Counted from the first letter of the stretch, positions 35,581-54,183 are shown. The stretch is DNA of 64,000 bases from an uncultured Candidatus Saccharibacteria bacterium (GCA_964368135.1 CAYIZI010000001.1:42926-106925), one strand, 5' to 3'. The notes: a model not told the origin generated them from the sequence alone. Made by a program: numbers and translations.

Positions 35581-37206
35581 TTAATCTTGGTTTTCCAAAA
35601 TTGGCTCGGTATTCAAAATATCCAAATACTCATCCCTTAATTGGTAAATATCGGCAAACGGATAAGAATCAACTAAATCGTATCTTTCAAATCCGGGCGT
35701 TCTTGAAACAAAACTCCATACCGAATCATTATCATCATGAGTCCGCATCACTATCCATCTTGCCCAATGGTCAGGCAGAGTTGTCGCCTCTTTCCAATAA
35801 TCGCCTGTTCCTTCATGGATGAATTTTTTCATCGGCATGCCGGACGAGAATATGATGGCGTCATGCGAAGCGGCGGATATTAATACAAATCCATCTTTAC
35901 CAGCGGCGTTTTGAGCCAGCCAGCCGCTTACTTCGGCGACGTTCTTCTGGCTTGAACCGACTCTGGCATCATCTATAGTAACCGCATCACCGCTTGAAAA
36001 CTGGAAAAAGAGAACAAAAAGAATCAATCCGATGATGACCGGCCTTAATTTTGAAACATAATGAATAAGATATCCGACAAATATCGCGATTGTCGGCATC
36101 AGCATTACTCCGTATCGGGCGTTAAACCAGGTGTCTCCTGATAAACCCTGAATAAATAATACCGAATGGCCAAGATAAAGAGCTAATATATTGAAGAAAA
36201 GGGGGGCCAACAAAACAAAAGTGGCAAAACGCACGCCTCGTCTTATATTCCCTGAAAACCAAAGAGCGACCGCCCCAACAAGACCCATAAGCGCTAAAAA
36301 CGCATTGGAATTATATGCCAAAGCGTAGAAATAGACTTTTAATGAAAAAAACCAATCCCCTTTTGTTGAAAGAACTCCGGCCGCTTCAAGCTGGGTCTGC
36401 TGGGTTCTGGCCGAATAAGGCCCGAAGGCAAAGTAAAGAGGATCGCCGAATATCAAAAGATTCCATAAAAACCACAATACTATGCCAAGCCCGGCCAGAG
36501 TAATGAATAAAATAAGCTTGCCCTCGGCCTGCTTATAGCCGTTTTTCTTCCATACGTAAAAAACAATCATCATTGAGGCTAAAACTAAAAGGAGCCAGCC
36601 GTCATACCTGACCAAGGTTGAAAGCATTATCCAAAAAGCTGACTTGACCAAGTCTACAACCTTGTCATCTTTGAACCACAGCATCAGATAATACGCACCC
36701 GCGGTCATAGCGGCGACAAGCGTTAATTCAGTCATGGCCGTTGACTGAAGATAAAGAACATTCAAATTTGAAGCAAATATCCCCACCCCGATTAATCTGC
36801 CGGTCATTTTAACTCCTATTTTTTCTAAGAACTTATAGATTATCAACCCGGTCAAAACAAAACCAAACATTGACCAGATCGTGCCGGCTAAGCCGGAATG
36901 CCACATAAAATCATTCCAGATTGTCAGGACCATAAGAAGGTGGGTAAGCGGCAGCCAGACGCTTCCCAACTGGGCAAACCCCGGCTTTAATCCCTCAACG
37001 ACCCGGCGGCCAATATCCAAGTGAGAACGGGCATCGTTATAAGCCAAGCTAAGCCCGTTCTGGAAATAAAACATGAAACTTAACACCGAGATAACTGATA
37101 GTATCGCCGCCACAATGGCAAAACCGTTTCTTTCAAAGAAAACTCCGACTCTATTTAGAGCATCGCTGCTTATATTGATTTTAATTACGCCCTTACTTTT
37201 GTTCAT
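35581..37206 (-). CDS. GT-C fold membrane glycosyltransferase (ArnT/PMT/YfhO-like), putative
   Basis: 541 aa, ~12 TM helices, first periplasmic loop with YNDARSHLDIGRR acidic motif. Confidence 0.45.
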   Translation of the reverse strand: MNKSKGVIKINISSDALNRVGVFFERNGFAIVAAILSVISVLSFMFYFQNGLSLAYNDARSHLDIGRRVVEGLKPGFAQLGSVWLPLTHLLMVLTIWNDFMWHSGLAGTIWSMFGFVLTGLIIYKFLEKIGVKMTGRLIGVGIFASNLNVLYLQSTAMTELTLVAAMTAGAYYLMLWFKDDKVVDLVKSAFWIMLSTLVRYDGWLLLVLASMMIVFYVWKKNGYKQAEGKLILFITLAGLGIVLWFLWNLLIFGDPLYFAFGPYSARTQQTQLEAAGVLSTKGDWFFSLKVYFYALAYNSNAFLALMGLVGAVALWFSGNIRRGVRFATFVLLAPLFFNILALYLGHSVLFIQGLSGDTWFNARYGVMLMPTIAIFVGYLIHYVSKLRPVIIGLILFVLFFQFSSGDAVTIDDARVGSSQKNVAEVSGWLAQNAAGKDGFVLISAASHDAIIFSSGMPMKKFIHEGTGDYWKEATTLPDHWARWIVMRTHDDNDSVWSFVSRTPGFERYDLVDSYPFADIYQLRDEYLDILNTEPILENQD

Positions 37207-38764
37207 TTTTTAAGAAAAATAAACTAACCATTAATGATAAAGTCACGGCTATTACTAAAGCTGTCATCATCTGATGATACTCTTGAGCGGTTAGGTATTG
37301 GCTGGCATATCTTTGGAATATAAACGACTTGGATTTATTCTTTTTCAATAAATCAAAATTTCTCTCATAAGTGAACTTTTCTTCTTTTCCTGACACCTCT
37401 TCAAGAGAAAGGACCTGCGCTTGCGGAGGATTAGTATCAGAAGTTATTGCTCCAAGAACATTAACCCAAACTGAATAGCTTACTAAAACAATAAATATTA
37501 TGCCGAATAAATAATTTTTCCTGAATTTAGTAAGAGCGAGTGAAAGGCCTATCCCTCCCAAGGCATAAGACGGAATCAGATATCTTGAACCAAATGCCCA
37601 CCCACCCCAAGGATCTCCCCAAAGAGAATAAAGAATTATATTAAATCCAATAGTTGCCAAAATTAAATTAGCGGCGGATCTATTTAACTTATACAAATAA
37701 GCAAAGCCCAAAATGCTTAAAAGAATAACCGGCGTGAACCAGACAATTCCCCTATCCGGACTTATGAAGTGGATATAAAATCCGTTAAGTAAATTCCTGG
37801 TTTTGAAAAATCCGACTGCTGTTTTCTCTTTATGGTAAGTTTTCTGTAGATTTAATAACTTGCTTATTTCTGATTGGGTTGGTAAACCTTTTTCATCTAT
37901 GGCCTCGACTGATTGAAGCGTACCGGGCAACTGGAATGGGTTGCCGGTAGAAGCCTGGTTAAACCATAGAAATAAAACGATGGGGGGGATAACGGCAAGT
38001 AGGGTTAAAAACCCGAGTATGTTGAAATTAATCTTTAATTTGAATTTTTCTTTTTCAATCCAGATTATTCTGGCCAAGGCAAAAACTCCAAGCGGAATCA
38101 TAAAAAATATGTTCGGGTTGTCCACCACGACCGAAAAGGCGATTAAAAACCATATCAAAGCCACTGACCAAAGATTATTCCAGCGGATAAGCGCATAAAT
38201 ACCCAATAGAATCAAAAAAGTTGATATATGATGCTGGTATAAAGTGGCGGCATAAGCAAAAGCCGGCGAAGCAAAAGCAAAAACAAGAGCCCCGATACTG
38301 GCCGCCAAAGGATTAGACCCTAACCTTATCGCTATCAACCTCACAAAGATTATATTCAAAAGAGCGAATAAAGCTGCGGTTGAAAATGCTCCCACTTGTG
38401 ATAATCCAAACTCTCTTCCTATCACGTAACCAGGTATAGCCAAAAAAGAAACACCCGGATTAAAAAGAGAAACATAACCGCCATTAACATAAGCAACATC
38501 TGGGGTAGTGAATTTGGCTAATGGCACTGAAAACTGAAAAGACTTATCCTCAACTAAAGAATAAGTCAAAGCAAATCTGCCCCTTTCCGGAGATAATTCA
38601 AAAGGCGCGCTTTCTGTAGGTTCATTAGGCTTCCACTGAGAAGTATTTAAGGCATCTTTGTTTGGATTTCCGGGAATGCCGCGCAAACCAAGAATTAAGA
38701 TAGCGGCGCAAAATAGTATAAACAATATGGCCGGAATTAATTGTAATATTTTAATTTTATCCAT
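37193..38764 (-). CDS. GT-C fold membrane glycosyltransferase (ArnT/PMT-like), putative
   Basis: 523 aa polytopic; loop-1 motif SPERGRFALTYSLVEDKSF. Confidence 0.45.
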   Translation of the reverse strand: MDKIKILQLIPAILFILFCAAILILGLRGIPGNPNKDALNTSQWKPNEPTESAPFELSPERGRFALTYSLVEDKSFQFSVPLAKFTTPDVAYVNGGYVSLFNPGVSFLAIPGYVIGREFGLSQVGAFSTAALFALLNIIFVRLIAIRLGSNPLAASIGALVFAFASPAFAYAATLYQHHISTFLILLGIYALIRWNNLWSVALIWFLIAFSVVVDNPNIFFMIPLGVFALARIIWIEKEKFKLKINFNILGFLTLLAVIPPIVLFLWFNQASTGNPFQLPGTLQSVEAIDEKGLPTQSEISKLLNLQKTYHKEKTAVGFFKTRNLLNGFYIHFISPDRGIVWFTPVILLSILGFAYLYKLNRSAANLILATIGFNIILYSLWGDPWGGWAFGSRYLIPSYALGGIGLSLALTKFRKNYLFGIIFIVLVSYSVWVNVLGAITSDTNPPQAQVLSLEEVSGKEEKFTYERNFDLLKKNKSKSFIFQRYASQYLTAQEYHQMMTALVIAVTLSLMVSLFFLKNEQK

Positions 38765-40010
38765 TATATTGGTGATTTATCCTGCTATACGACTGAATAC
38801 CTATATCCTTTGAACTATTAGGGTTTTTGACTATCTGTTTATATAAACTATTCATACTATCGGCAACTTCCCTCCAAGAATTTCCAAGACTAAAGTTCAC
38901 GCAGTTTTTTTGCATATCTTTTATAAATTTGGAGCCATTATTTTTAAGGACAAAATCTATTTTCTTAGCTAAGGCTTTGTGATCACGAATCCCGATGCAG
39001 TATCCGTTTATTCCATTCTTAATCAAATATGTCAGGGCTTCATTATTAGAAACAATACATATTAAACCTTGACTTAAACCTTCATTTATAACATTTGGAT
39101 AAGCTTCTTTAATAGACATCAGAATCATCATCCCGGCCTTTTTAATTATATAGTACTTATCTATGCCTTTTATCAGCCCAGTAAATACCACTCTGTCTTG
39201 TAAACCTAATTTTTCTATAAGCTCCTGGAGGTATTTTTTATAAGAATTATCATCTTCTGGCCCTACAATCACAAACTTAAGATTTTTAGGCAGTATGGCC
39301 AGGGCTTTAATAGCGGTTTCGTAATTTTTAATTGGGTGGATCCTGCCTACCTGAATTATGTAATTACCTAATCCCTCAACTATTTTCTTTATTTCGGGAC
39401 TGGCCTTAGTTTCAACATCTTCAAAGGCCTCGCTTTCAATCCCGTTCTCAATAACCACAACAAGTTCTGGTTTTACTCCTTTTTCAATTATTTCAGATTT
39501 TTCTAATTCAGAAACAGCCCTGACCGCATCAACAACAAGATTTATAAAAAGTATTCCCGCTGTATAATGGTAGACTATTTTTATTATCTTCTGGATGGGA
39601 TTGAATATGGACCAGTCTGGAGTAAAGCCGCCGTGAGGAGTTAAAACCAAAGCAAAATTCTTTTTGCCTAAGATTTTTAGGAACAAAGCTTTAAACAAAA
39701 TGTGGAAGTGCGGAAAGATATTAAAATTGTGAAGGCAAACAAGGTTTGTATTTTTCCAGTTTATACTTGGCAAATAGCCATACCATTTAAAAGGATATCT
39801 TCTAATCTTGATGCTTCTAACTTCGTCTGTGTTAGGCAGATAATTTTTATTCGTAAACGTGTCTTTAGAAGTGTGGATAGTAACATCCCATCCTTTTTCG
39901 GCAAGAACGCTGTAAGTCTCCAAAATATTTGTCTCGGCGCCGGCTACAACCGGATAGAAGTACTTTTGTACTATATCAATATGACCAAGTTTTTCTGATT
40001 TTATATTCAT
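38757..40010 (-). CDS. Glycosyltransferase family 4 (GT-B)
   Basis: E-x7-E region ...EAYPNVINEGLSQGLICIVS...; GT4 C-terminal domain pattern. Confidence 0.7.
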   Translation of the reverse strand: MNIKSEKLGHIDIVQKYFYPVVAGAETNILETYSVLAEKGWDVTIHTSKDTFTNKNYLPNTDEVRSIKIRRYPFKWYGYLPSINWKNTNLVCLHNFNIFPHFHILFKALFLKILGKKNFALVLTPHGGFTPDWSIFNPIQKIIKIVYHYTAGILFINLVVDAVRAVSELEKSEIIEKGVKPELVVVIENGIESEAFEDVETKASPEIKKIVEGLGNYIIQVGRIHPIKNYETAIKALAILPKNLKFVIVGPEDDNSYKKYLQELIEKLGLQDRVVFTGLIKGIDKYYIIKKAGMMILMSIKEAYPNVINEGLSQGLICIVSNNEALTYLIKNGINGYCIGIRDHKALAKKIDFVLKNNGSKFIKDMQKNCVNFSLGNSWREVADSMNSLYKQIVKNPNSSKDIGIQSYSRINHQYNG

Positions 40011-40019
40011 GATAATTTT

Positions 40020-40961
40020 TTATTCAGTTTGTTTATAAATTAATGTTTTGGATGACCTGTGAGGCATAAATAGAGGATCAAATTTTGAAACTTTTAATGT
40101 CGTAATCCTATTGATACATACCTCCAATAAATACAAGACGATCAAAACAGGATTCCTGAAAAAGCTTGATAAAACAGACTTAACGACCAACCCGAACGGC
40201 GGGCTATATTCCTTTTTAATCCAGGCTGGTTCAAAATACTTACAAAATGATCTTCGGCCGCTTATGAATTTAGTGCACTGCTTTTTCCTATCTTTGAAAT
40301 TGGTAACATTCCTAAAATAAAATCTTGCGCGATGTTGTTTAACCATTTTTAAATTCAACTGTTTTAACCTGAAATAAGTGTAAACGTCTTCTGGAAGGTC
40401 TAATGGCCATGTGAGATTTTGGGTAAAGTTCCTTGATAAAATTTTGGCTGAATTGCAACAATAAATATTATCGCCTCCTCGCCACTCACTGAACATCTTA
40501 CTTTTCATACGACTACCTTGAGTCATTACCTTTTCAAATAAACCAACGGGTTTAACCGGCTCTGCATTGCCGACTGCAATGCCCAGATTTTTAATACTTG
40601 ATTTCTTAAATGGATGCACCAACTCATCAATAACTCCTGTGTCGGCGGGCAAGGCGTCGCCTTCCACTATCATTAATAAGTCGCCGGAATATTTTTTAAG
40701 CATCAAGTTCTGCATAGCTTGCTGGCCTGATCTTTTTTTAAAGATAAACATTTTAATTATCTTAAATCTATTTGCCAAAGATTTAACAATATCTACAGAA
40801 TTATCTGTGGTGCCATCAAAGAAAACCATAATTTCTTTAAGCATATAATTATCCTGTTCCTGTTTAACCAGCCTCAAAATAAGCTCTTTAATATTGGCTT
40901 CCTCGTTGTAAACCGGAATGCCTATAGAAACCGTCAATTTTCTTGTTTTTTTCTGGTTCAT
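40020..40961 (-). CDS. Glycosyltransferase family 2
   Basis: VSIGIPVYNEEANIKELI N-terminus, D-x-D region, GT-A fold. Confidence 0.7.
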   Translation of the reverse strand: MNQKKTRKLTVSIGIPVYNEEANIKELILRLVKQEQDNYMLKEIMVFFDGTTDNSVDIVKSLANRFKIIKMFIFKKRSGQQAMQNLMLKKYSGDLLMIVEGDALPADTGVIDELVHPFKKSSIKNLGIAVGNAEPVKPVGLFEKVMTQGSRMKSKMFSEWRGGDNIYCCNSAKILSRNFTQNLTWPLDLPEDVYTYFRLKQLNLKMVKQHRARFYFRNVTNFKDRKKQCTKFISGRRSFCKYFEPAWIKKEYSPPFGLVVKSVLSSFFRNPVLIVLYLLEVCINRITTLKVSKFDPLFMPHRSSKTLIYKQTE

Positions 40962-40962
40962 T

Positions 40963-41871
40963 TTATTTATTTATTTGCTTAGTCGACGCATCAACATCCC
41001 AAACAGGATCAATAACTTTCTTTTCCGGTTGTTTATTTAATCTGGTATAAATAAACACACCCATATAAGAAACCAAAGATATAGGATGCCTAATAAATTC
41101 CTCTAAAAAGCTTAAAACTAATGCCTTGATTGGGATTTTATATTCGGCTGCTACTTGCTGACCAAAATAAGACACCATTTCTTTTAGAGCATATTGGTAG
41201 CGGCTGCTTGGACCCACCTGGTCGCTAATTTTTTGGGGACAGCGGATTTTAACAATAGCTTTGTCTGCTAAGGCAAACCTTCCGCCTAATCTCCTGTTTT
41301 CCAAGTACATATACATATCGCCGGTTACAATATTTTCGCGAAGATTAAACCTTTTAAAATGCTCGGTTCTAAATGCAAGACAACGACCGCTGGCCAATAG
41401 ATGGTTGCTCTTGCCTTTTAATTTTAAGACCATGTGGTCAATAACCCTGACCATACTTGCCATTGCCGACTCAAAAAAAGTTTCAGGCGGCAAAGGCAAA
41501 ACTCTTGCCCCAACCATGGTTGCTTCTGGATTACTCTGAAAAACAGACAGTATTTCTTTTAAAGTCCCGGGTTCAAAGGTTATATCGTCTTGAGTGGAAA
41601 CATAAATATCGCTATTGCATACATCAACCGTCTGCTTAATTTTTTTAAGCTGGCTCCCCTCTTTTTCATTCCAAATCAATTCAACTCCCAATTTGGAAAG
41701 CTCGGATTTAATTTCAGGCGATATCGGCGTGCGGTCAGCGCAAATTATAAATCTGAAGTTGCCCACTCCTTTTGAATTTCTAAGACCTTTGGCGGTGTCC
41801 GAAAGAGATTCGCCTCCGTAGCAAGTGGGTATAGCGACGGTTAATGTCAATTGTTTTTCTTTGTTATCCAT
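40963..41871 (-). CDS. Glycosyltransferase family 2-like
   Basis: LTVAIPTCYGGESL N-terminus, QDD acidic motif. Confidence 0.6.
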   Translation of the reverse strand: MDNKEKQLTLTVAIPTCYGGESLSDTAKGLRNSKGVGNFRFIICADRTPISPEIKSELSKLGVELIWNEKEGSQLKKIKQTVDVCNSDIYVSTQDDITFEPGTLKEILSVFQSNPEATMVGARVLPLPPETFFESAMASMVRVIDHMVLKLKGKSNHLLASGRCLAFRTEHFKRFNLRENIVTGDMYMYLENRRLGGRFALADKAIVKIRCPQKISDQVGPSSRYQYALKEMVSYFGQQVAAEYKIPIKALVLSFLEEFIRHPISLVSYMGVFIYTRLNKQPEKKVIDPVWDVDASTKQINK

Positions 41872-43150
41872 TTTTGAAATGTTTGGTTTGTTCTTCTCTT
41901 AACTTATCTGATAAACGACCGTCCGGCCGCTCAACATCGGCATATGTAATTACTTCATCTTGTTTTATATCTCTCTTTAAAACACAGCCGTCCGTTAAAC
42001 CCATCGACAAGAGATTTTCTTTCAAACTGACATCATAATTTTCAATAACTCCATAACAGGTGAATCCGCCGATTCCGTCCAAAACTTCTCCTTTCTTAAG
42101 ATCTTTTTTGGCTAAAGTAATGACATCACAAAATGGCCTGCCGACTGGAGCCAAGGTGGCGTCTTTCATTAATACGGCTCTGGCCACACTGGCTGGTGTC
42201 TCAATAGGACTTAAATGATATGGCCTGTAAAATGTATATACTGGGCCATTGCCCATCTTATAGACCTTCATATACCTCTGTTTTATCGGGTGCTCGCTAT
42301 AAGCCAAGACAAAAACTCCAAAACTTGGTTCGGCTCCCAAGATATAATCCACTATCGGCCTGTCTTTTATTTCTTCAAACGGAAATAAATTAACGGCTTG
42401 CTCCACTCTCTCACAGCGATGGCCGAACATTCCTCTTTTTCCGACTCCAAACCCGACGGCATTGCCGATTGTGGCCATTTCCATGGCTATCTTTGTGCCA
42501 TCGGCAAAAGAAGTAATCATTTTCGGCCTCTGGAAATGGGCTTCGGCAAACGCCTTCTGGGTCTCCGGAGTTCTCCTCGCATCAATCAAGCTTTTTATAT
42601 TGCCCGCTAATATGGGTTTAAACCCCCACATTTTTACTTCCCTAATCAAATTCATTAAAACCGCAGGCTGGTCTCCGTCTCCTTGGGTATAGATAACTCC
42701 GGCAGCGTCAGCGTACTTTTTTAATATCGGCCCCAAAGTTGCATCAAGCTCGGCATTTATCAAAACGATGTGCTTTTTATTTTTTATCGCCTCCATCGCC
42801 ACTTTTGCCCCAAATTCAACTTCTCCGGTAGCATCAACAATTGCATCAATATAGGAAGAATTGCATAACAGCATTGGATTATCGGTGATAACATATTCTC
42901 CTGACTTAATAGCCGAATCTAAATCATTTTGATTATCCGCGCGCCTAATCGGACTGGCATTAAGTTCTTTCAGCGCCTCCTCCGCCGTATCTATAGTCCT
43001 ATTGGAAACTGCGCTCAACTTCATCCCCGGAGTTGAAGTAATAAGCTGAAGCATAAAACCCTTAGCCGCAAAGCCGGCGCCAACAAGGCCTACTCTTATG
43101 AGTTGGCTGTTGTTCTTTAATTCCTCTAATTTTTTATCAATGATAATCAT
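41864..43150 (-). CDS. NAD(P)-binding oxidoreductase with C-terminal SAF domain (COG4091-like)
   Basis: Rossmann motif VGLVGAGFAAKG, SAF-like C-terminal domain; sits inside a sugar-modification cluster. Confidence 0.5.
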   Translation of the reverse strand: MIIIDKKLEELKNNSQLIRVGLVGAGFAAKGFMLQLITSTPGMKLSAVSNRTIDTAEEALKELNASPIRRADNQNDLDSAIKSGEYVITDNPMLLCNSSYIDAIVDATGEVEFGAKVAMEAIKNKKHIVLINAELDATLGPILKKYADAAGVIYTQGDGDQPAVLMNLIREVKMWGFKPILAGNIKSLIDARRTPETQKAFAEAHFQRPKMITSFADGTKIAMEMATIGNAVGFGVGKRGMFGHRCERVEQAVNLFPFEEIKDRPIVDYILGAEPSFGVFVLAYSEHPIKQRYMKVYKMGNGPVYTFYRPYHLSPIETPASVARAVLMKDATLAPVGRPFCDVITLAKKDLKKGEVLDGIGGFTCYGVIENYDVSLKENLLSMGLTDGCVLKRDIKQDEVITYADVERPDGRLSDKLREEQTKHFKNG

Positions 43151-43159
43151 ATTTATTTA

Positions 43160-43690
43160 TTAGCTTTTAAAATCCGGCCAAGATGAATCTTTTTCAGAAA
43201 CATGCTCTACCGCTACCGGCCAATCAAAATTAAATTTCTTATCATTAAATCTAATTCCTTTTTCACATTCGGCCGTAAACGGCGCCGTATATAAATTTAT
43301 AAATTCAACATCGTCTCCCAGGGTTAAAAATCCGTGGGCAACGCCTTTAGGAACATACAGTGATTTCATATCTGAATCGCTAAGCTTAAAACCCTGCCAC
43401 TTCAGGTATGTCGGAGAGTTAGGTCTTACATCAACAATAACTTCATAGATAGAACCCCTGGTAACTCTGGTCAACTGGGCCATCTCTTGAGGTTTAATCT
43501 GATAATGGATTCCTCTGATTGTGCCTTTATTTTTTGTAAAAGAAATATAGCCCTGAACAATTTCATTGCTTATATTTACTTTTTTAAACTCATCCTTGCC
43601 GAATATGCGGGTTAAATTGCCTCGGTCATCCTCTCGCTTGGCAAGTTGAATTAAATACGAACCTTCAATGTTTGTTTTTATAAATTCCAT
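43160..43690 (-). CDS. dTDP/CDP-4-dehydro-6-deoxy-sugar 3,5-epimerase (RmlC-like cupin)
   Basis: RmlC cupin pattern ...RGIHYQ...YVPKGVAHGF... Confidence 0.75.
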   Translation of the reverse strand: MEFIKTNIEGSYLIQLAKREDDRGNLTRIFGKDEFKKVNISNEIVQGYISFTKNKGTIRGIHYQIKPQEMAQLTRVTRGSIYEVIVDVRPNSPTYLKWQGFKLSDSDMKSLYVPKGVAHGFLTLGDDVEFINLYTAPFTAECEKGIRFNDKKFNFDWPVAVEHVSEKDSSWPDFKS

Positions 43691-43691
43691 A

Positions 43692-44723
43692 TTATTTTTT
43701 AACTTTCCAATTAAGCATATTGTCCAACTGGCCAGTTTCCATCAGGTATTTTATTTCTTTTAATCTGGTGAATGGATTCGACTCAAATACCTCCTTGGTC
43801 ATGGAAATTTTTTCAAATATTTGTTTTAACTGCTCGGCCCCGTCTTTAATGCTCCACTGGCATTTAAATCCGGGCAGTTTAGAATATATTTTGTCAAAAT
43901 TTACTCTGTAACTTCTGTTGTCGCTGCCGGCCTGGTCCATTGTAATTTTGCAATTGGGGAATACGTCAGATATTACTTTGGCAATATCTCTGACCTGATA
44001 ATTCCCTTTGTTGCTCCCAACATTGAATACTTGATTATGGACGACTTCTTTAGGCGCTTTAGCGGCGCAAATCATTGCCTGGCAAATATCAAGAATATGA
44101 ACCAATGGCCTCCAGGGAGTACCGTCGCTATTTAGTTTTATCTCTTTATCAACCCAGGCCAAGCCACTAAGGTTATTCAATACGATATCAAATCTCATTC
44201 TTGGAGAGGGTCCGTAAGCCGTGGCATTTCTTAAAAATACGGGCGAAAAATTATCATCGGCCAGTTTAAATAATTCTTTTTCCACCAATATTTTGCATTT
44301 AGCATAAGCTGTCTGGGGATTGACGGCAGACTCTTCAGTCACCAAATCATCTTTGGCAATGCCGTAAACGCTGCACGAAGACGAATATATAAACCTTTTG
44401 ACACCGGCTTTCTTGCATTTTTCAGCCAGTGAAACCGAGCCATGATAGTTTATGGAATAGGTTAAATCAGGGTTAATTTCGCCGAGAGGATCATTAGACA
44501 GCTCGGCCAGATGAATAACAACGTCAAATCCTCTTAAATCATCTTCGGTCACATCACGGGTATCTTTGCGCAGAATTTCCGGCTGTTTGCCAAAACCGTT
44601 ATAAAGCTGGCCGGACTTATAAAATCCGGCATCTAAACCAACCACCTCATATCCTTTTTCGATCATTTTAGGAGCTAAGACAGAACCGATATATCCGTCT
44701 GCTCCGGTTATTAATATTTTCAT
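43692..44723 (-). CDS. NAD-dependent nucleotide-sugar epimerase/dehydratase (GalE-like extended SDR)
   Basis: MKILITGADGYIGS, SSSCSVYG and YAKCK (YxxxK) motifs; start trimmed to the ATG at 44723. Confidence 0.75.
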   Translation of the reverse strand: MKILITGADGYIGSVLAPKMIEKGYEVVGLDAGFYKSGQLYNGFGKQPEILRKDTRDVTEDDLRGFDVVIHLAELSNDPLGEINPDLTYSINYHGSVSLAEKCKKAGVKRFIYSSSCSVYGIAKDDLVTEESAVNPQTAYAKCKILVEKELFKLADDNFSPVFLRNATAYGPSPRMRFDIVLNNLSGLAWVDKEIKLNSDGTPWRPLVHILDICQAMICAAKAPKEVVHNQVFNVGSNKGNYQVRDIAKVISDVFPNCKITMDQAGSDNRSYRVNFDKIYSKLPGFKCQWSIKDGAEQLKQIFEKISMTKEVFESNPFTRLKEIKYLMETGQLDNMLNWKVKK

Positions 44724-44725
44724 AA

Positions 44726-45439
44726 TTACCAAACCTTCCAAAGGGCCTGGCCTTTTTGCCAAAGCTCCTCCAGAATATTTTTATCTCTTAGCGTATCCAG
44801 ACACATCCAAAATCCTTTGTGGCGATACGCGGCTAATTTACCGTCTTCGACCAACTGCTTCATTGGTTCTTGTTCAAAAACAGTTTCATCTCCTTGGATG
44901 TAATCAATTACTTTCGGGTCAAGAATAAAAAATCCGCCGTTTATCCACGAACCCCCATTTTTTGGTTTTTCCCTGAAACTTGATACCAATCCATTCTTGC
45001 CCTCAATTTTTAAAATACCGAACCTCCCTTCCGGCTGAACTGCTGTTACGGTGGCTGGTAAATTATGGCCATTATGGAATTCTAAAAGTTTTTTTAAATC
45101 AACATCGGCAACACCGTCGCCATAAGTAAGGAAAAACTGGCCATTACCAAGATAATCTTTTATTCTCTTTATCCTGCCGCCGGTCATGGTTTCCTGTCCG
45201 GTATCAACAATGGTTATATTCCAATTTTCATTATCAATCCCTTTGCTAAAATACTCCTTTATCATGTCGCCTTTGTAGCCGGCACAAATGATAAAGTCGT
45301 TAAAACCCTGGGTTGAAAATATTTTCATAACATGCCAAAGCATCGGTTTGCCGCCGATTTCAACCATTGGCTTAGGCCTGACCGAAGTTTCCTCGGCTAT
45401 CCTGGTGCCATAACCGCCTGCTAAAATTACCACTTTCAT
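44726..45439 (-). CDS. rfbF: Glucose-1-phosphate cytidylyltransferase
   Basis: MKVVILAGGYGTRIAEETSVRPKPMVEIGGKPMLWHVMKIF... Confidence 0.8.
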   Translation of the reverse strand: MKVVILAGGYGTRIAEETSVRPKPMVEIGGKPMLWHVMKIFSTQGFNDFIICAGYKGDMIKEYFSKGIDNENWNITIVDTGQETMTGGRIKRIKDYLGNGQFFLTYGDGVADVDLKKLLEFHNGHNLPATVTAVQPEGRFGILKIEGKNGLVSSFREKPKNGGSWINGGFFILDPKVIDYIQGDETVFEQEPMKQLVEDGKLAAYRHKGFWMCLDTLRDKNILEELWQKGQALWKVW

Positions 45440-45452
45440 ATCATTCATATAG

Positions 45453-46364
45453 TTAATTATTCTTACAAAAATCTTTGACGTAATTTATGTCTTCCTGGGA
45501 CAGCTTCGGCCAATACGAACTCACCAGCCACTTGCCGCCTAACATCACTGAATTACTGTTAAAAGCTTCCTGCGTCTTCAGATTGGACAGACCAATGGCG
45601 TGACCAAAACCGTGAATCATTTCTCTTATCAAGGCGGATTCTATTAATTTCCCTTCATCTGCTAAACTGCCTAAATAAACATTACTGTTGGCTGCATAGT
45701 CAAATAAGGCCGTAAAAATATTCAGCATAAAATGATCCACGGTTCCATTGCTATATATCTTTTGATACGAAACATCAGTATAATCATAATCTTCCCCATT
45801 CTTAAATTTAAAGGCCGGGTCAAGAATAAAGTTAACCGTATTTACGGTTCCTTGGTAATTATTGAATAAATCAATACCCAAAGCATCTTCCCACTGTTTT
45901 TCGGCATAACCGAGAAGCTCGTTAAGCCGCTGGCGGCTATAACCCAGTTCAAATAATCTCACATCAACATTCCCTAATTTGTAGGTTAGTTGAATTGAAC
46001 AATGAGCCGGAGGCGGCAGAGGCGTAGGCGTGGGAGTTGGAGTTGGGGTCGGAGTTGGAGTTGGGGTCGGTTTCGGAACTGGTTTTGGTTTTTGCGTAGA
46101 ACTTGGAGTAGAAACCGGCCCAATCGGCGATTCAGACGGTTCTGACGTAGCCGATGGACTTAAAATAGGAGTCGGCGTCGGAGTTGATTCTTCAAATAAT
46201 TGGGCAATGAGGGCCGCCGGGTTATTATCAGTATTCATTATCTTACTTAAACCAAAAGTAAATCCGACTGAAATAATCAATGCAAAAGCAGGAACTAATA
46301 CAGACAGTGGGATGAAACCTGACTTTATGCTTATTATTTTTTTGTTTTTGTTGGTTTTATTCAT
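45453..46364 (-). CDS. Membrane-anchored secreted protein with a Pro/Thr-repeat linker and a degenerate zincin-like domain
   Basis: N-terminal TM, KPKPVPKPTPTPTPTPTPTPTPTPLPPP linker, C-terminal REMIHGFGHAIGL resembling a metzincin motif without its first His. Confidence 0.5.
   Translation of the reverse strand: MNKTNKNKKIISIKSGFIPLSVLVPAFALIISVGFTFGLSKIMNTDNNPAALIAQLFEESTPTPTPILSPSATSEPSESPIGPVSTPSSTQKPKPVPKPTPTPTPTPTPTPTPTPLPPPAHCSIQLTYKLGNVDVRLFELGYSRQRLNELLGYAEKQWEDALGIDLFNNYQGTVNTVNFILDPAFKFKNGEDYDYTDVSYQKIYSNGTVDHFMLNIFTALFDYAANSNVYLGSLADEGKLIESALIREMIHGFGHAIGLSNLKTQEAFNSNSVMLGGKWLVSSYWPKLSQEDINYVKDFCKNN
46033..46068. repeat. Perfect 18-nt tandem duplication built from GGAGTT/GGGGTC hexamers; encodes the (TP)n linker
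   Basis: ggagttggagttggggtc x2, read directly; coding, not a CRISPR array. Confidence 0.7.
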
Positions 46365-46370
46365 ATTTTT

Positions 46371-49300
46371 TTACTTACTGATTATTGATAAAAACGCCTT
46401 GCTTGTTTTACTCCAGTCAAAATTACTGGCCCATTTTACTGCTTCCTGGCTCATCCGGTCGCGGAGATCCTTGTCTCGAATTATCGTTAAGATACTCTCC
46501 GCGAATGCATCGCTATTGCCGTAAGAAACAAGGCGGCCAGTTTCCATATTTTTCACAGAATCCCTTAAGCCCGGTACGTCAGAAGCCACTATCGGGGTGC
46601 CGCAAGCATTGGCTTCAATCGTGGTAATGCCCCACCCTTCCATAAACGAAGGATTTACAAATACCCAGGCTTTTTGAAAAAGTTCTATTTTCTCTTTTTC
46701 AGAAACCTTTCCTCTAAATACTACTTTGCCGTTAAGATTAAGTTCAGAGGCTAATCTTTTTAACGAATTTTCTTCTTCGCCGCTGCCGACAATGACCAAC
46801 CGGGCATCATCAACTTGTCTTATAACCTTTTCAAAAGCTCTTACTAAAACATCAACCGACTTATAGGCTTTAAGCCTTCCCAAATAAAGAATAGTCGGTT
46901 CCGGACTCTTTCTCCCAAGAGTTAAATTTTTAGAATTGACTCCGGGATGGACTATTTCAATTCCTTTCTTAGTTCCAAGGCCAAAACTCTGAATATCTTT
47001 TTTGCTTGATTCCGAAACCGTAATAAACTTTACATTCCGGTAGACTATGGGCATCAAATCCTTCTCTAAAAATATTGCCAGCTTTGCTAAGGGTTTAGGC
47101 AAAGAATGCCTGAAGACTTCCTGATGGATATGATGGATAAGACAATAAATCGGCTTCCTTGAATAGATGGGCGTAAAAAAAGGAATGCCGTTATGACAAT
47201 CAACTATGATGTCATATTTGCCTCTGAATTGGGTCAGGTAGTAAATAAAAGCCCAGAGGTAAACAAAGTAAAACCCGCCTCTTCTTATGATTTCAACCCC
47301 ATCTATAATTTCTCTTCTCTTTGAATAACTGTCATTGCCGCAAAAAACAGTGACCTGGTGTCCATCCTTGACCCACTGTTTGGCGATTTCGTGGACATAA
47401 AGTTCTGCTCCGCCACCATATATATGCCTTGTGTCTCTCCAGTTAAATATAAGAATCCTCTTGCCGAGCTTCGCCATCGGAGCCTCGGTTTCAATAGGTC
47501 TAAACGCATCTTTCAAATCAATAATGCCCCTCCAGACAAACTTAAGCCTGCCCTCAAGTACGTGGAATAAATAAACCAGGCCCAACCCAAAGATGCTGGC
47601 CCATAAAATAACATTGACTATCTCTTCGACGCTGCCGTGATTTAGGATTATGCCGATAGACATAAACAATGAAGCAGTCATTGAAATAATCGGGAATATA
47701 AATTGCCTTTTAGCCAAATGATAGACGACTATAGAATTTGAAATCGTGAAAACAGTAAGCGCGAGAGTGTAAATATTAAGATAAGGCAGAATGGCCAGCG
47801 TCTTGGAGCCAAAAAGTATCGGCACGGTTAAATTGCCCAGAGGGCCCAAAAAAATAAACCCGGCTAATGACAAAAGGACGGTTGAACCAACCAGCAGCTC
47901 AAATGTCTTTTTAGTATTTCTCTTTAATCCCTCGTCTCGGCCAATCAAAGTAATCATAAATATATTGGGCAGAGAGCCGAGAAAATATATCATCTTGCCG
48001 ACAAGCGATATTAGAGTGTACTCGCCGGCCAAACGCGGCGATAAAAAGTGTTTGACTAAAATAATGTCAATGCTTAAAAATATCGTCGCCGACATTAAAG
48101 TAAGTATTGAGGCGTAGAAAAACCTGCCCGGAAACTTATGGTTTTTAGTCTGAATAAAATCTTCAGAATGCCTTGAAACAGCCAAAACAGAAGCCATTGA
48201 AGCAACCGCTATGGATATCGGAATTGAAAGATAAACTAAATGATTTAACCCATACCAGGCGAAAAGAGCCGCCGCAATAAACTTACTTACTGATTCAAAA
48301 AGAATAACGAAAGCAACACTGGTAAAGTAAAGATTGCCATTAAGAAACCCCCTGTTTGCCGACGCAATCACTCCCAAAGTCAGAACCGGAGTGAACATAA
48401 AAAGGATGGACTGGCTGCTTATGTTAAAGAAATTAGAAAGGAATGAAACTGAAACTATCCACATTACCGATATGCCTAAGGCAATAGGAATTGCTTTGTT
48501 CAAAGTTGATTTGAGAAACGCAAGCGCCGACCCCTCACCCTTTTCAACGGCCAGATGAGCAGTCTTATGGTTTACCGTTGAGGAAACCGCGCCCATAAAT
48601 ATCGCCGCTACTGACCATAAAGTATTAACCAGTATCACTAGACTAAGTTCTTCAAAAGACAAAACCCTTCCCAGGAAAGCGTTAAAAAGAAAATTAAGGA
48701 AATTGGCGAACATCATCGCCGCAATCATAAGCGCCGCTCCCGAAAGAGCATTTTCGGTCAGCGATAACGGCAAAAATTTATTAGTGGTTTTTTTCAGCCA
48801 AGAATCTTTCTTTATAAAATTAAGAGTCAATTCAGGTTTCGGGGCCGGTCCCGATTTTATCGTCCCTAAAACAGGTAAGGGTTTTAATTTCTTTAAATGC
48901 AGGCCGTGCTTGGTCTTTTCCCAGAAATGCGGCTTAATGAAAAGCTGGTAAGTTGCCATTACCGCGGCAATACTCATAAAGAACCAATAGAAAGGTATTA
49001 AAAAGACATATTTTATTATTGGCCAGTGGCCCCTTTTGGCACAGCCGATCATGTAATAGTAAAAATAGAGAAAATTCCCGAAGACCAGAGAAAAAACGGC
49101 GATATAAAAGACCGGGGTCGGATATATTGATTCTATGGTCGGACCGACAACGGAACGCAGGGCGAAATAAGAGATCGTCATAAACCACAAAATTGGATTT
49201 ATAAGCATAAAGACAATTTTGCCGCCGATGTTAAGCTGGAAAAGAAAAGTATGGATGCCGCTTTTTTTCAAAAATTCCATCGGCTTTCTCATATGAACCA

Positions 49301-51047
49301 GATATGTCTGCATATAGCCCTTAATCCACCTTGACCTCTGCCTTATCCAGTTCCAAACCTGACTATTTGCTTCTTCAAGAGTTATTGAATCAATAATCGC
49401 CGTGTTGAAACCCTGTTTAAATAACCGCACCCCCAAGTCGGCGTCTTCGGTAACGTTGAAGGGATCCCAACCCTTAAGATTCCTTAAGTCGGCGGTCCGG
49501 AAATGGTTGCTGGTGCCGCCAAGAGGAATTGAAGTATTAATTGACTGAAGACCCGGCAGAATGATTTCAAACCACAACGAGTACTCGGCCGTAAAAAGCC
49601 GGGTCAAAAGATTTTGATTGGTGTTATAATAATTGAGTTTTGCCTGAAGACATTTAACTTTTTCTGGCACTCTTTGAAAAGCCAAATAAGCTTTCTTAAG
49701 CTGCTGGGGTTCGGGCATATCTTCGGCGTCGTAAACGACAAGATACTCACCCTTGGCTGAATTAAGACCATAATTGCAGGCCTTGGGCTTGGTCTTAGGC
49801 AAAGAGTGAGGAACGATTACTATCCTTACGTAGCTTGGCAAATCTATTGACCTGGCAGTATCTATTGTCTCTAAGTCGTTTTCTTCTAAAAGCAGCTGGA
49901 CATCCAATTTATCCTTAGGCCACTCCAATTTGCTTATTGAATTTAAAAATTTTGGAAGAACCGCTGATTCCCGATAAAGCGGGCAGAGAATCGCATAAAC
50001 CGGCAGAGAACTTTCGTCTATCCGGGAAAGTTCCTCATCAGTAAAACTAAGTTCCGGAGGATTATGCAGACTTTTTGTGATAAGGAATAAATTAAACAAA
50101 ACGTCAAAAAAGTATAGAGAGCTTAAAACAGCCATTAAAGCTATGGCCGTATAGAGCGGGAAAAATAAAAATCCGGCAACAGCCAAAATAACGGATAGAA
50201 ATATTAAAAATTTCTGGCTGGCGGTAAATGTGATTAGGGCCGAGGTTTCACTGTCAAGATTAGAATGAGTAATGAACCTTCTGCCTTTATGGGCCATTCC
50301 GGCGCCGATCATACTTGATTCGTCTTGCGGCGGTATTTGAATCGGCTTTTTCTTTTTTAACTTGTTGGCCAACGCGTTAGTGCCTATTTCCCAACTGGCT
50401 TTTATGACATTGATTTTTGATTCACCGGAATGCCTCTTTTCAAAATCTATATTAACGGTGGCTATTTCATGGCCGGCGTATCTGGCGTTAACCAAGAATT
50501 CCAGATCAAAGGTCCACTGGGACGGATTAACTGCTATTTCCTTGGTTATCTGTTTTTTAAAAACTTTTAACCCTGACTGGACATCGCACTTAAGCCCGTG
50601 AAGAATCCGGCCAAAAACAAAATTAAAACCTTTGCTGGCCAGCTTTCTTAAGGGGCTTATGCCTTTATAACGTCTATTGGCCACAACTACGCCGGCGCCA
50701 TCTCTAATTTTTCTCACCATTTCCGGTATCGCTTCCGGCGGGTACTGCAGGTCAGCGTCAATCATCCCGACAGTGTCATACTTGGCATAATCAAAACCCT
50801 CAAGAATAGAAAAGGCCTTACCCTTTTTGCCTTTCTTCAAATGACAACTAATTGGATATTCGTCGGCCAGATTATTGGCAATCTTAACCGTATTATCGGT
50901 TGAGTGGTCATCTATTGTGACTATTTCATACTCAATACCGCCTTTTTTTAAAGCATTATCAATCCTCTTGACTAACTTCTGGATATTTCCTTCTTCATTA
51001 AAAGTAGGAATAATTATTGATACTTTTTCAGTGTTTTTGGCCTCCAT
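46371..51047 (-). CDS. 1558-aa multi-domain glycan-assembly fusion: GT2 (DPM1-like) + processive QxxRW GT2 + Wzx/MOP-like flippase domain + GT4
   Basis: aa 8-230 GT2 (IIIPTFNEE, DDHSTDN, DADLQYPP); aa ~345-715 cellulose-synthase-like GT2 (DAEDMP, QRSRWIKG, C-terminal TMs); aa ~755-1175 12-14 TM MOP-like; aa ~1195-1558 GT4 (E-x7-E: FMEGWGITTIEANACGTPIV). Confidence 0.75.
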   Translation of the reverse strand: MEAKNTEKVSIIIPTFNEEGNIQKLVKRIDNALKKGGIEYEIVTIDDHSTDNTVKIANNLADEYPISCHLKKGKKGKAFSILEGFDYAKYDTVGMIDADLQYPPEAIPEMVRKIRDGAGVVVANRRYKGISPLRKLASKGFNFVFGRILHGLKCDVQSGLKVFKKQITKEIAVNPSQWTFDLEFLVNARYAGHEIATVNIDFEKRHSGESKINVIKASWEIGTNALANKLKKKKPIQIPPQDESSMIGAGMAHKGRRFITHSNLDSETSALITFTASQKFLIFLSVILAVAGFLFFPLYTAIALMAVLSSLYFFDVLFNLFLITKSLHNPPELSFTDEELSRIDESSLPVYAILCPLYRESAVLPKFLNSISKLEWPKDKLDVQLLLEENDLETIDTARSIDLPSYVRIVIVPHSLPKTKPKACNYGLNSAKGEYLVVYDAEDMPEPQQLKKAYLAFQRVPEKVKCLQAKLNYYNTNQNLLTRLFTAEYSLWFEIILPGLQSINTSIPLGGTSNHFRTADLRNLKGWDPFNVTEDADLGVRLFKQGFNTAIIDSITLEEANSQVWNWIRQRSRWIKGYMQTYLVHMRKPMEFLKKSGIHTFLFQLNIGGKIVFMLINPILWFMTISYFALRSVVGPTIESIYPTPVFYIAVFSLVFGNFLYFYYYMIGCAKRGHWPIIKYVFLIPFYWFFMSIAAVMATYQLFIKPHFWEKTKHGLHLKKLKPLPVLGTIKSGPAPKPELTLNFIKKDSWLKKTTNKFLPLSLTENALSGAALMIAAMMFANFLNFLFNAFLGRVLSFEELSLVILVNTLWSVAAIFMGAVSSTVNHKTAHLAVEKGEGSALAFLKSTLNKAIPIALGISVMWIVSVSFLSNFFNISSQSILFMFTPVLTLGVIASANRGFLNGNLYFTSVAFVILFESVSKFIAAALFAWYGLNHLVYLSIPISIAVASMASVLAVSRHSEDFIQTKNHKFPGRFFYASILTLMSATIFLSIDIILVKHFLSPRLAGEYTLISLVGKMIYFLGSLPNIFMITLIGRDEGLKRNTKKTFELLVGSTVLLSLAGFIFLGPLGNLTVPILFGSKTLAILPYLNIYTLALTVFTISNSIVVYHLAKRQFIFPIISMTASLFMSIGIILNHGSVEEIVNVILWASIFGLGLVYLFHVLEGRLKFVWRGIIDLKDAFRPIETEAPMAKLGKRILIFNWRDTRHIYGGGAELYVHEIAKQWVKDGHQVTVFCGNDSYSKRREIIDGVEIIRRGGFYFVYLWAFIYYLTQFRGKYDIIVDCHNGIPFFTPIYSRKPIYCLIHHIHQEVFRHSLPKPLAKLAIFLEKDLMPIVYRNVKFITVSESSKKDIQSFGLGTKKGIEIVHPGVNSKNLTLGRKSPEPTILYLGRLKAYKSVDVLVRAFEKVIRQVDDARLVIVGSGEEENSLKRLASELNLNGKVVFRGKVSEKEKIELFQKAWVFVNPSFMEGWGITTIEANACGTPIVASDVPGLRDSVKNMETGRLVSYGNSDAFAESILTIIRDKDLRDRMSQEAVKWASNFDWSKTSKAFLSIISK

Positions 51048-51070: not shown

Positions 51071-51088
51071 ATCCCATATTATGGGATA
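51071..51088. promoter_or_regulatory. Palindrome ATCCCATA-TT-ATGGGAT 24 nt upstream of the fusion-protein start
   Basis: 8-bp perfect arms read directly; candidate operator or GNAT-gene 3' hairpin. Confidence 0.3.
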
Positions 51089-53179: not shown

Positions 53180-53239
53180 AATCTCCTGATTTTTTAAACT
53201 ATATCAATTTATCGACCTGATTTTTAAAGATAAAGAGAG

Positions 53240-53266
53240 GTTATAATGGGATATGGGTCTTGTCAA
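53240..53266 (-). promoter_or_regulatory. Candidate sigma-70-type promoter of the major pilin gene
   Basis: Minus strand TTGACA (53266-53261) - 15 nt - TATAAC (53245-53240), then aggag SD before the ATG at 53179. Confidence 0.4.
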
Positions 53267-53269
53267 TAT

Positions 53270-54176: not shown

Positions 54177-54183
54177 CAGAAAA

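Follow-up and report, generated by a model that had tools for sequence, protein, structure and literature searches.

A four-module membrane protein of Patescibacteria and two neighbouring membrane transferases that probably build a cell-surface glycan

An uninterrupted four-module open reading frame

We analysed a 64,000-nucleotide stretch of DNA from an uncultured Candidatus Saccharibacteria bacterium (GCA_964368135.1, CAYIZI010000001.1:42926-106925), hereafter the window, and in particular a minus-strand gene encoding a protein of 1558 amino acids (aa). Four modules follow one another in this single chain (Table 1): a glycosyltransferase of family 2 resembling polyprenyl-phosphate-sugar synthases (GT2-A), a membrane-integrated processive-type GT2 synthase (GT2-B), a Wzx-like domain of the MOP superfamily (MOP), and a retaining glycosyltransferase of family 4 (GT4). 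Judging from sequence comparisons, the protein appears to be a genuine multi-enzyme inner-membrane protein characteristic of Patescibacteria, the bacteria of the candidate phyla radiation (CPR). Together with two neighbouring membrane transferases, m541 and m523, it probably builds a cell-surface glycan. The parts are all of known kinds, and both the architecture and the pathway appear undescribed in the literature searched. A first-pass annotation of the same DNA knew of no described four-module fusion of this type, and we likewise found no paper describing the architecture or the pathway, in a search that did not cover most subscription journals and is thus weak evidence of absence.

The gene begins with an ATG and runs through 1558 codons with zero internal stops; by our own estimate, an open reading frame (ORF) of this length would occur at random with a probability of about 0.95^1558, or about 1e-35, at the 41% GC of the window. 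The identical protein was present on three contigs of 50-200 kb, one of them from the Hainich groundwater metagenome (well H51, 0.1 um filter). The best 120 database matches were 1533-1730 aa long, save one partial record of 1389 aa, and most of them shared 50-86% identity with the query across 98-100% of its length. Occurrence of the same fusion in related genomes was also checked, and a scan of one genome per species recovered the four modules in a single frame in at least 17 species-representative genomes. The modules do lie in different frames or genes in five related loci (L014, L016, L037, L040, and L047), which could speak for an assembly or frameshift artefact joining ordinary separate genes into our ORF. 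However, because three contigs carry the identical protein and full-length orthologues number more than 120, with identities down to 50%, the ORF was confirmed not to be a frameshift merge or an assembly artefact. The single-frame chains in the species representatives argue the same way, and we consider such an artefact vanishingly improbable. The single uninterrupted polypeptide proposed in the first-pass annotation thus stands.

The named records among the best 120 matches were Parcubacteria, Niyogibacteria, Moranbacteria or "Patescibacteria group", and the fusion was recorded overall in Parcubacteria, Microgenomates, Dojkabacteria, Doudnabacteria, and Saccharibacteria. In the public database the family bears only the generic name "glycosyltransferase". 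Many loci with CPR-type four-module genes (L001-L003, L007, L010, L013, L022-L026, and others) came from metagenome-assembled genomes (MAGs) entitled "uncultured Gammaproteobacteria", "Bdellovibrionales", "Pseudomonadales" or "Verrucomicrobiia". We did not accept these titles as a spread of the fusion beyond Patescibacteria, the bins looking mislabelled.

Two ORFs of the other strand, 46030-46524 (+, 164 aa) and 47791-48117 (+, 108 aa), are contained in the fusion gene or overlap it. The former is annotated as a gene in the public assembly; both are most likely spurious.

The four modules

The module boundaries given in the first-pass annotation proved accurate when compared with Pfam matches, hydropathy and predicted transmembrane (TM) boundaries, except that its range for GT2-B left out both N-terminal TM helices, and all four of its domain assignments (DPM1-like GT2, processive GT2, Wzx/MOP-like, and GT4) were upheld. 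In this section, residue invariance is given across 36 orthologues of the 1558-aa protein.

The N-terminal module, GT2-A, matched Pfam Glycos_transf_2 (PF00535) at aa 10-168, within the range of aa ~8-230 previously given. Against PDB, its best match was the dolichyl-phosphate mannose synthase (DPMS) of P. furiosus (5mlz, E 1e-33), followed by ArnC (4e-22) and GtrB (7e-21). NCBIfam returned sub-threshold matches to ArnC, PgfS, AglJ, and a Dol-P-hexose transferase, and the equivalog level of ArnC, PgfS, and AglJ was not reached (78-91 bits vs cut-offs of 325-529). The DAD motif lies at D97/D99 (aa 97-99), and D46, D47, D97, D99, and Q101 were invariant. GT2-A has no C-terminal TM or GtrA-like domain of its own, the TM helices that follow being those of GT2-B. 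From these matches, GT2-A is of the polyprenyl-monophosphate-sugar synthase type and not an initiating phosphoglycosyltransferase, with mannose as the best guess for its sugar. Polyprenyl-monophosphate-sugar synthases make donors for external GT-C enzymes. The priming role attributed to this module in the first-pass annotation was accordingly not retained: its kin (DPMS, ArnC, and GtrB) make GT-C donors and are not initiators.

Between GT2-A and GT2-B lies a conserved juxtamembrane linker in which G248, A249, G250, F258, H261, S269, and A270 were invariant. The AlphaFold2 (AF2) model shows short strands of low confidence there, and the matching of stand-alone GT2-B homologues begins inside this linker, at about aa 257-267. 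Taken over the whole protein, the linkers shared 18-29% identity among orthologues.

GT2-B starts with two TM helices, continues with a GT-A catalytic domain, and ends in a bundle of TM and interface helices. By hydropathy, the hydrophobic segments comprise the two helices at aa 280-323 and three segments at aa 605-704, and Pfam matched Glyco_tranf_2_3/Glyco_trans_2_3 (PF13641/PF13632) at aa 351-639. The motifs DAED (aa 440-443), TED (aa 533-535), and QRSRW (aa 570-574) are all present, and the DxD, TED, and QRSRW motifs were invariant in CPR and non-CPR homologues alike. A profile built from 24 homologues matched the BcsA proteins of E. coli (6e-23) and Rhodobacter (1e-16) in PDB, with the DxD, TED, and QRxRW motifs aligned to those of BcsA. 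The AF2 model of GT2-B (predicted local confidence, pLDDT, 77.7) retrieved with Foldseek BcsA (E 2e-15, TMq 0.61), CvHAS (0.57), XlHAS1, and chitin synthases, in alignments of 430-530 columns. GT2-B is thus a BcsA/hyaluronan-synthase-like enzyme, and its model places the GT-A domain against a bundle of TM and interface helices. It was the most conserved of the four modules, with a mean identity of 68-71%.

In the third module, 12 TM helices were predicted between aa ~770 and 1163, with about twelve hydrophobic segments by hydropathy (aa 770-1161), in good agreement with the region of aa 755-1175 previously described as flippase-like. The sequence models considered were Polysacc_synt (PF01943), PF13440, PF14667, MatE (PF01554), and MurJ; the window copy had no Pfam match, either within the full chain or alone at E<=10. 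Orthologous segments did match: MatE in 6/22 (4e-7), Polysacc_synt in 5/22 (1e-9), and Polysacc_synt_3 in 1/22 (2e-8). Structure prediction gave a 12-helix MOP fold (pLDDT 83.9, pTM 0.82, 12 long helices) whose Foldseek matches in PDB were MurJ (E 3.6e-7), WzxE (4e-6, TM-score 0.65-0.74), and MATE proteins; the best 50 of the 56 matches at E<=0.001 all belonged to the MOP superfamily. The assignment to the MOP/Wzx models thus failed for the window copy in Pfam and held for some of its orthologues and for the predicted fold. The sole hits of the sequence profile against PDB were orexin receptors (E ~1e-3), which we took as hydrophobic-helix noise because the fold search returned MOP proteins exclusively. 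MOP was the least conserved module (mean identity 44%), with the polar or charged residues N785, E918, K922, D994, H1000, K1018, and H1137 nonetheless invariant. We regard the membrane region as a bona fide yet fast-evolving Wzx-like domain, on the strength of its modelled fold, and as a predicted flippase.

The C-terminal module matched Glyco_transf_4 (PF13439, aa 1212-1372, 65 bits) and Glycos_transf_1 (PF00534, aa 1379-1539, 155 bits), both above threshold. Its closest relatives in PDB were MshA (3e-21), PimA (4.5e-19), and PimB' (1e-15). Both glutamates of the EX7E motif, E1470 and E1478, were invariant, and its assignment as a GT4 with an intact EX7E motif could be confirmed at the sequence level.

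Table 1. Features of the fusion gene, of the rest of the window, and of two Firmicutes loci
Feature	Position	Strand	Basis or remark
Complete ORF, GT2-A + GT2-B + MOP + GT4	46371..51047	-	Stop codon 46371-46373
GT2-A, aa 1-230, soluble GT-A domain, DPM1/GtrB/ArnC-like	50358..51047	-	Pfam PF00535
Conserved juxtamembrane linker, aa 231-279, motif SMxGAGxAH..RFITH..SAL	50211..50357	-	
GT2-B, aa 280-716, membrane-integrated processive-type GT2 synthase	48900..50210	-	Pfam PF13641/PF13632
Variable linker GT2-B/MOP, aa 717-765	48753..48899	-	18% mean identity; low pLDDT
MOP domain, aa 766-1181, 12-TM Wzx/PST-like + C-terminal amphipathic helix	47505..48752	-	AF2/Foldseek, orthologues
GT4, aa 1198-1558, retaining GT-B glycosyltransferase, EX7E E1470...E1478	46374..47456	-	Pfam PF13439, PF00534
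Type IV pilus set: several N_methyl pilins, PilC-like T2SSF, PilB-like T2SSE, 533-aa LVIVD/beta-propeller	52703-58503	-	
303-aa protein, N-terminal TM anchor, Pro/Thr-rich linker, C-terminal HGFGHAIGL domain	45453-46364	-	6 nt downstream of fusion gene
Variable nucleotide-sugar genes: DRL-type oxidoreductase, RmlC-like epimerase, NAD epimerase/dehydratase, nucleotidyltransferase	41864..45448	-	Pfam
Cytoplasmic glycosyltransferases: GT4 38757-40010, GT2 40020-40961, GT2 40963-41871	38757..41871	-	Pfam
m523, multi-TM protein, probably GT-C	37193..38764	-	NCBIfam, hhalign to m541
m541, predicted GT-C (PMT/ArnT-like) membrane glycosyltransferase	35581..37206	-	Orthologues match PMT_2/PMT
Cluster 3' end: DUF4015 putative glycosyl hydrolase (1e-74), short-chain dehydrogenase/reductase (SDR), secreted 416-aa CarboxypepD_reg protein	32262-35579	-	
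Protein O-mannosyltransferase (Pmt)	12935-14404	+	Pfam PMT 1e-53, PMT_4TMC 1e-43
Clostridium drakei GT2-B orthologue, then BcsB-like	L076:9153-11390, L076:11456-13672	+	Domain matches
Desulforamulus GT2-B locus, BcsB-like next	L079:9462-11717	+	Domain matches

Fusion variants, neighbouring genes and relatives outside CPR

The comparisons covered 80 related loci, 60 of which had enough flanking sequence for co-occurrence counts. Across them, the same module set was fused to varying degrees, up to the full four-module chain. GT2A-GT2B-GT4 proteins of ~1150-1185 aa without MOP were present in four loci (L028, L032, L046, and L052), and other arrangements included GT2B-MOP-GT4, GT2A-GT2B alone and a reordered version (L031). 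In L043, the set was split into two genes, GT2A-GT2B and MOP-GT4. In L040, a 1127-aa MOP-GT4-GT2 protein (10261-13641, +) adjoined a 740-aa GT2A-GT2B protein, giving five modules in two genes and indicating that another GT2 of the cluster can also be fused. The covalent GT2A-GT2B fusion was the most widespread sub-architecture in CPR loci, and stand-alone GT2-B proteins with ~50% identity were found in Chloroflexota, Actinomycetota, and other phyla. In one MAG (JBBTVD01, loci L028 and L038), we observed at least three paralogous systems: a GT2A-GT2B-GT4 with m523 and m541, an adjacent, divergently oriented GT2A-GT2B of 700 aa, and, on another contig, a third GT2A-GT2B with an m541-like gene.

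A search with the MOP domain alone, covering 1.84 billion representatives, returned 135 relatives at E<=1e-30, many of them stand-alone proteins of ~420 aa. Among the best 150 representatives, ~40 had the length of MOP-GT4 proteins (720-840 aa, MOP N-terminal) and ~8 that of the four-module protein; MOP-GT4 was thus the commonest sub-fusion in this family, a class assigned by length and domain position and confirmed in its domain content in L040 and L043 only. Both this sub-fusion and the split between GT2A-GT2B and MOP-GT4 genes tie MOP to GT4. Two otherwise conserved chains carried half of a MOP domain, corresponding to the C-lobe in L031 (3352-7500, -; hidden Markov model (HMM) positions 241-448, E 6e-32) and to part of the N-lobe in L026 (8004-12089, +; HMM positions 99-221, E 1e-11), which looks like domain erosion inside the chain. 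An intact stand-alone MOP gene adjoins the fusion of L031. In the loci without MOP, no gene of this family was found within 8 kb.

The most conserved neighbours of the fusion were m541 and m523, with m541-like genes in 56/80 and m523-like genes in 38/80 of the related loci. The window copies of both proteins (~530 aa each) had no Pfam match, and their profiles returned nothing usable against PDB sequences. Among m541 orthologues, 10/26 matched PMT_2 (best 1e-8) and 3/26 PMT, with D58, in the first loop, invariant. Of the m523 orthologues, two out of 23 matched PMT_2; m523 also matched the NCBIfam model of the LA_3751/LA_3752 putative glycosyltransferase (2e-10) and was homologous to the m541 family (hhalign 96.4%, E 1e-9). 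From these matches, m541 and m523 are most likely both GT-C enzymes. Such enzymes use polyprenyl-phosphate sugars outside the membrane, and the two proteins would therefore be consumers of just what GT2-A would supply. The presence of m523 followed that of the GT4 module (34/38 loci with GT4 vs 2/22 without; Fisher p = 5e-10, not corrected for phylogeny), and m541 accompanied GT2-B in 35/38 loci with GT4 and in 14/22 without.

The fusion gene sits in a long co-directional array, with genes for a GNAT protein, MsrA, a DUF192 protein, and type IV pilus components upstream. A terminator-like hairpin at 51071-51087 (-), with a 7-bp stem containing three G-C pairs and followed by TTTTATTTGG, a T-run reaching to 51061, precedes the ATG of the fusion gene by only 24 nt. 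A weak promoter-like match was present upstream of it (51145-51116), and the counts did not exceed shuffled expectation. The hairpin may terminate the GNAT gene or act as a leader element. Immediately downstream of the fusion gene, the 303-aa protein matched no Pfam family, and none of the 80 related loci encodes a homologue. The nucleotide-sugar genes that follow were found in just 2-5/80 related loci and are thus lineage-specific, and homologues of the cytoplasmic GT4 and GT2 genes occurred in 17-35/80. At the 3' end of the cluster, the DUF4015, SDR, and secreted proteins may trim or remodel the polymer. Pfam scans of the ORFs between 29.7 and 58.5 kb detected no initiating phosphoglycosyltransferase, Wzy, Wzz, or BcsB, in a search confined to the window and with Wzy proteins difficult to recognise from their sequence. 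The window was also scanned for tRNA genes and Rfam families, with no match. Further away, the presence of Pmt implies that the organism needs a source of polyprenyl-P-mannose, for which GT2-A is a candidate supplier.

Outside CPR, GT2-A, GT2-B, and an m541-like protein occurred together in loci of Ktedonobacterales, Dormibacterota, Chloroflexi, and Firmicutes. The GT2-B orthologues of Clostridium drakei and Desulforamulus aeronauticus (49% identity) lie in an operon with genes for a BcsB-like protein (E 7e-39 and 7e-45, respectively), a DPMS-like GT2, an m541-like protein (with a weak PMT_2 match in C. drakei), and a GDP-mannose pyrophosphorylase; a gene of the phosphomannomutase family (PGM_PMM) was present in Desulforamulus only. 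A GtrA_DPMS_TM tail was found on the DPMS homologues of Firmicutes and Chloroflexota and on no CPR one. At its N-terminus, the C. drakei GT2-B is extended by ~270 residues that show a weak MshEN-like match (E 3e-4, which is below the cutoff of Pfam) and a weak DUF4388 match, and this extension may be a cyclic di-GMP receptor. The Firmicutes operon (GT2-B, BcsB-like, DPMS, GT-C, and ManC) looks like an uncharacterised synthase system and points to a synthase-dependent polysaccharide modified by a GT-C enzyme with polyprenyl-P-hexose, probably mannose.

Proposed assembly line, its rivals and known systems

The first-pass annotation had suggested a self-contained priming, elongation and translocation factory. 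Its four domains stood, and its self-containment and priming were not supported: two conserved GT-C partners lie downstream, MOP is optional (absent, halved or separate in relatives), and no initiating phosphoglycosyltransferase, Wzy, or BcsB was found among the cluster ORFs scanned. We tentatively favour, without great confidence, a two-track assembly line for one surface glycopolymer, in which the 1558-aa protein would be the cytoplasmic and membrane half and m541 with m523 the extracytoplasmic half. The first track would be the core found in other phyla as well: GT2-B would polymerise a beta-glycan backbone from a nucleotide sugar and, like BcsA and hyaluronan synthase, extrude it via its own TM bundle, and GT2-A would load polyprenyl phosphate with a hexose, mannose being the likeliest; once flipped, this lipid-linked sugar would be spent by m541 outside to decorate or link the exported polymer. 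The second track would be an accessory expanded in CPR: working on the cytoplasmic face with the neighbouring GT2 and GT4 genes, the GT4 module would make a lipid-linked glycan or glycolipid, the adjoining 12-TM MOP domain would flip it, and the second GT-C, m523, would transfer or extend the product outside. The fusion would keep these activities stoichiometric and co-localised. The comparisons establish what the domains are, that their catalytic motifs are intact, that the third module has the MOP fold, and that the fusion and its GT-C partners are conserved; the sugars, the acceptor, the lipid-linked species flipped by MOP and the convergence of both tracks on one product are what we infer from this gene set. 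Since GT2A-GT2B-GT4 fusions without MOP exist, GT2-B should end on the membrane side of GT4, i.e., the cytoplasmic one, and insertion of a 12-TM cassette between them would preserve the orientation.

Several points weigh against the two-track assembly line. The CPR loci have no BcsB-like partner detectable by tblastn. MOP is the least conserved module and its window copy fails in Pfam; it has also been lost or half-eroded in some lineages whose loci contain no MOP gene within 8 kb, so that flipping in cis is not essential. Three hydrophobic segments follow the catalytic domain of GT2-B and the topology would require an even number of crossings; in BcsA and hyaluronan synthases, one equivalent post-catalytic helix is an interface helix. 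The co-occurrence statistics of m523 and GT4 are not phylogenetically independent. PMT/ArnT-type GT-C enzymes normally transfer single sugars, which makes the role of m523 in the second track speculative. Finally, fusion in a streamlined genome does not by itself imply that the modules act on one product.

The behaviour of MOP raises the question of whether it acts as a flippase at all. It could instead be a scaffold or spacer placing GT4 beside the synthase, with lipid-linked sugars flipped by other proteins, and this would fit its low conservation, the lack of any Pfam match of the window copy even at E<=10, the half-MOP remnants in otherwise intact fusions (L031 and L026), and the complete losses with no replacement nearby (L028, L032, L046, and L052). 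However, the full 12-TM fold is predicted confidently and its best matches are flippases of lipid-linked sugars, the set of seven polar or charged residues is invariant, the same MOP subfamily is abundant in stand-alone and MOP-GT4 proteins, and an intact MOP gene adjoins the remnant-bearing fusion in L031. We therefore consider a purely structural role quite improbable. A further candidate, in which MOP replaces a GtrA-like flippase, was not adopted as the main model: the complementarity is not strict, since the MOP-less CPR loci hold neither a GtrA-like nor a MOP gene within 8 kb.

Two other explanations concern the order of the reactions and the number of products. In a lipid-primed line, GT2-A would place the first sugar on polyprenyl phosphate, GT4 would add an adaptor sugar, and GT2-B would elongate this primer while extruding it; a GT-C enzyme would then ligate the finished chain to its acceptor and MOP would aid translocation of the primer or recycle the carrier. 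The synthase-dependent O-antigen of Salmonella O:54, made by WbbE/WbbF, is reportedly built in such a manner. The prevalence of the covalent GT2A-GT2B fusion in CPR would suit the hand-over of a primer, and both the conservation of the GT2A/GT2B/GT-C triad across phyla and the lack of a separate initiating transferase among the cluster ORFs scanned are consistent with it. Conversely, BcsA- and hyaluronan-synthase-type enzymes are, in known cases, self-priming or use non-polyprenyl primers, the closest kin of GT2-A all make donors, PMT/ArnT-like GT-C enzymes transfer monosaccharides, and in Firmicutes and Dormibacterota GT2-A and GT2-B are separate genes, the DPMS having its own GtrA-like TM domain; we thus find the lipid-primed line unlikely. 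It is no more probable, in our opinion, that the modules serve different products and were fused for economy in streamlined genomes, GT2-A making polyprenyl-P-mannose for Pmt, GT2-B an exopolysaccharide, and MOP-GT4 a third lipid-linked glycan. Nearly every combination or order of modules is indeed seen (GT2A-GT2B, GT2B-MOP-GT4, GT2A-GT2B-GT4, MOP-GT4, MOP-GT4-GT2, and stand-alone MOP and GT2-B), a Pmt requiring polyprenyl-P-mannose is encoded elsewhere in the window, and the linkers are poorly conserved. Against such a fusion of convenience, synteny of the gene set persists in fused and split versions alike, its GT-C partners accompany it in many lineages, and the subset of modules that is joined differs from one lineage to another, a pattern that usually signals functional coupling.

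A possible, still doubtful, reading is that the four-module protein and its two GT-C partners form a hybrid pathway not described before, in which an exported backbone, a flippase-delivered lipid-linked glycan, and polyprenyl-P-sugar side chains would be joined outside, yielding the main envelope glycopolymer of many Patescibacteria, with a core shared with Firmicutes, Chloroflexota, and Dormibacterota. If this were true, the product would be a functional analogue of lipoteichoic acid or lipomannan, and the GT2A/GT2B/GT-C core would be an unrecognised pathway common to several bacterial phyla. These ultra-small groundwater bacteria, which live attached to other cells, account for much of bacterial diversity, and their envelope glycans are little characterised; a single conserved polypeptide offers a tractable handle on the physical coupling of synthase-dependent and lipid-carrier routes. 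The fusion also acts as a Rosetta stone, since it ties polyprenyl-P-sugar synthases and GT-C enzymes to a BcsA-like family that is conserved, at ~50% identity, in Firmicutes, Chloroflexota, and Actinomycetota, and this linkage predicts a class of decorated, synthase-made polysaccharides awaiting characterisation.

Among known systems, GT2-B resembles BcsA, class I hyaluronan synthases, chitin synthases, PgaC, and NfrB in its D, DxD, TED, and QxxRW motifs and in having its GT-A domain flanked by a TM bundle. NfrB of E. coli is a glycosyltransferase with an MshEN domain (PMC8669472; PMC10118264). Pfam detected neither a PilZ nor an MshEN domain in the 1558-aa protein, and tblastn with Firmicutes BcsB-like proteins was blank in both the window and the CPR loci; because BcsB and PilZ are lacking, the protein does not belong to a Bcs system. 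It also differs from known membrane synthases in having only two N-terminal TM helices and in being fused to three other modules, and its acceptor-site motif reads IPLGGTSNH instead of the FFCGS of BcsA. MOP shares the 12-TM fold of WzxE and MurJ, and its orthologues match Polysacc_synt; unlike these proteins, it forms part of a multi-enzyme chain, and some lineages do without it in cis. Since neither an initiating transferase nor Wzy was found, the cluster does not correspond to a Wzx/Wzy system, from which it also differs by the lack of Wzz in the ORFs scanned.

The three-component systems of extracytoplasmic glycosylation formed by GtrB/GtrA and Gtr-type GT-C enzymes, CsbB/GtcA/YfhO, ArnC/ArnT, and mycobacterial PpgS/Rv3779 have in common with ours a DPM1/GtrB/ArnC-like GT2 tied to a PMT/ArnT-like GT-C, and as in systems of the GtrA/GtrB/GT-C type, the partners would decorate a polymer made by another enzyme. 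In contrast to the Gtr-type systems, the CPR loci have neither a small GtrA-type flippase nor a GtrA_DPMS_TM tail, with a MOP domain instead, and the presumed synthase of the acceptor polymer is fused to the donor synthase. Within CPR, SEML1_0793 of the cultivated Southlakia epibionticum (Saccharibacteria) joins a DPMS-like GT2 and a GT-C domain in one protein (PMC10633639). This protein is independent fusion evidence tying the two activities: like the present system, it joins a polyprenyl-P-sugar synthase to its GT-C consumer, and unlike the 1558-aa protein, it contains no synthase, MOP or GT4. The essential exopolysaccharide genes of Southlakia, SEML1_0081-0083, were ruled out as homologues, being a classical Wzx/Wzy cluster. 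Saccharibacteria are amenable to natural transformation (PMC10633639).

The gene set recalls two two-phase pathways of lipid-linked assembly. Actinobacterial lipomannan and lipoarabinomannan are made by the GT4 enzymes PimA and PimB', Ppm1, and the GT-C enzymes MptA and MptB, and the N-glycan precursor of the endoplasmic reticulum by the GT4 enzymes Alg2 and Alg11, the MOP protein Rft1, Dpm1, and the GT-C enzymes Alg3/9/12. The toolkit shared by lipid-linked assembly pathways has been discussed previously (PMC4973528). The likeness lies in the combination of a cytoplasmic GT4, a MOP protein, a DPM1-like synthase and external GT-C enzymes, PimA and PimB' also ranking among the best PDB matches of the GT4 module. 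No Alg7/WecA-type initiating enzyme was found near the fusion, and the 1558-aa protein differs from both pathways in uniting three of these functions in one chain with a processive synthase, which is found in neither.

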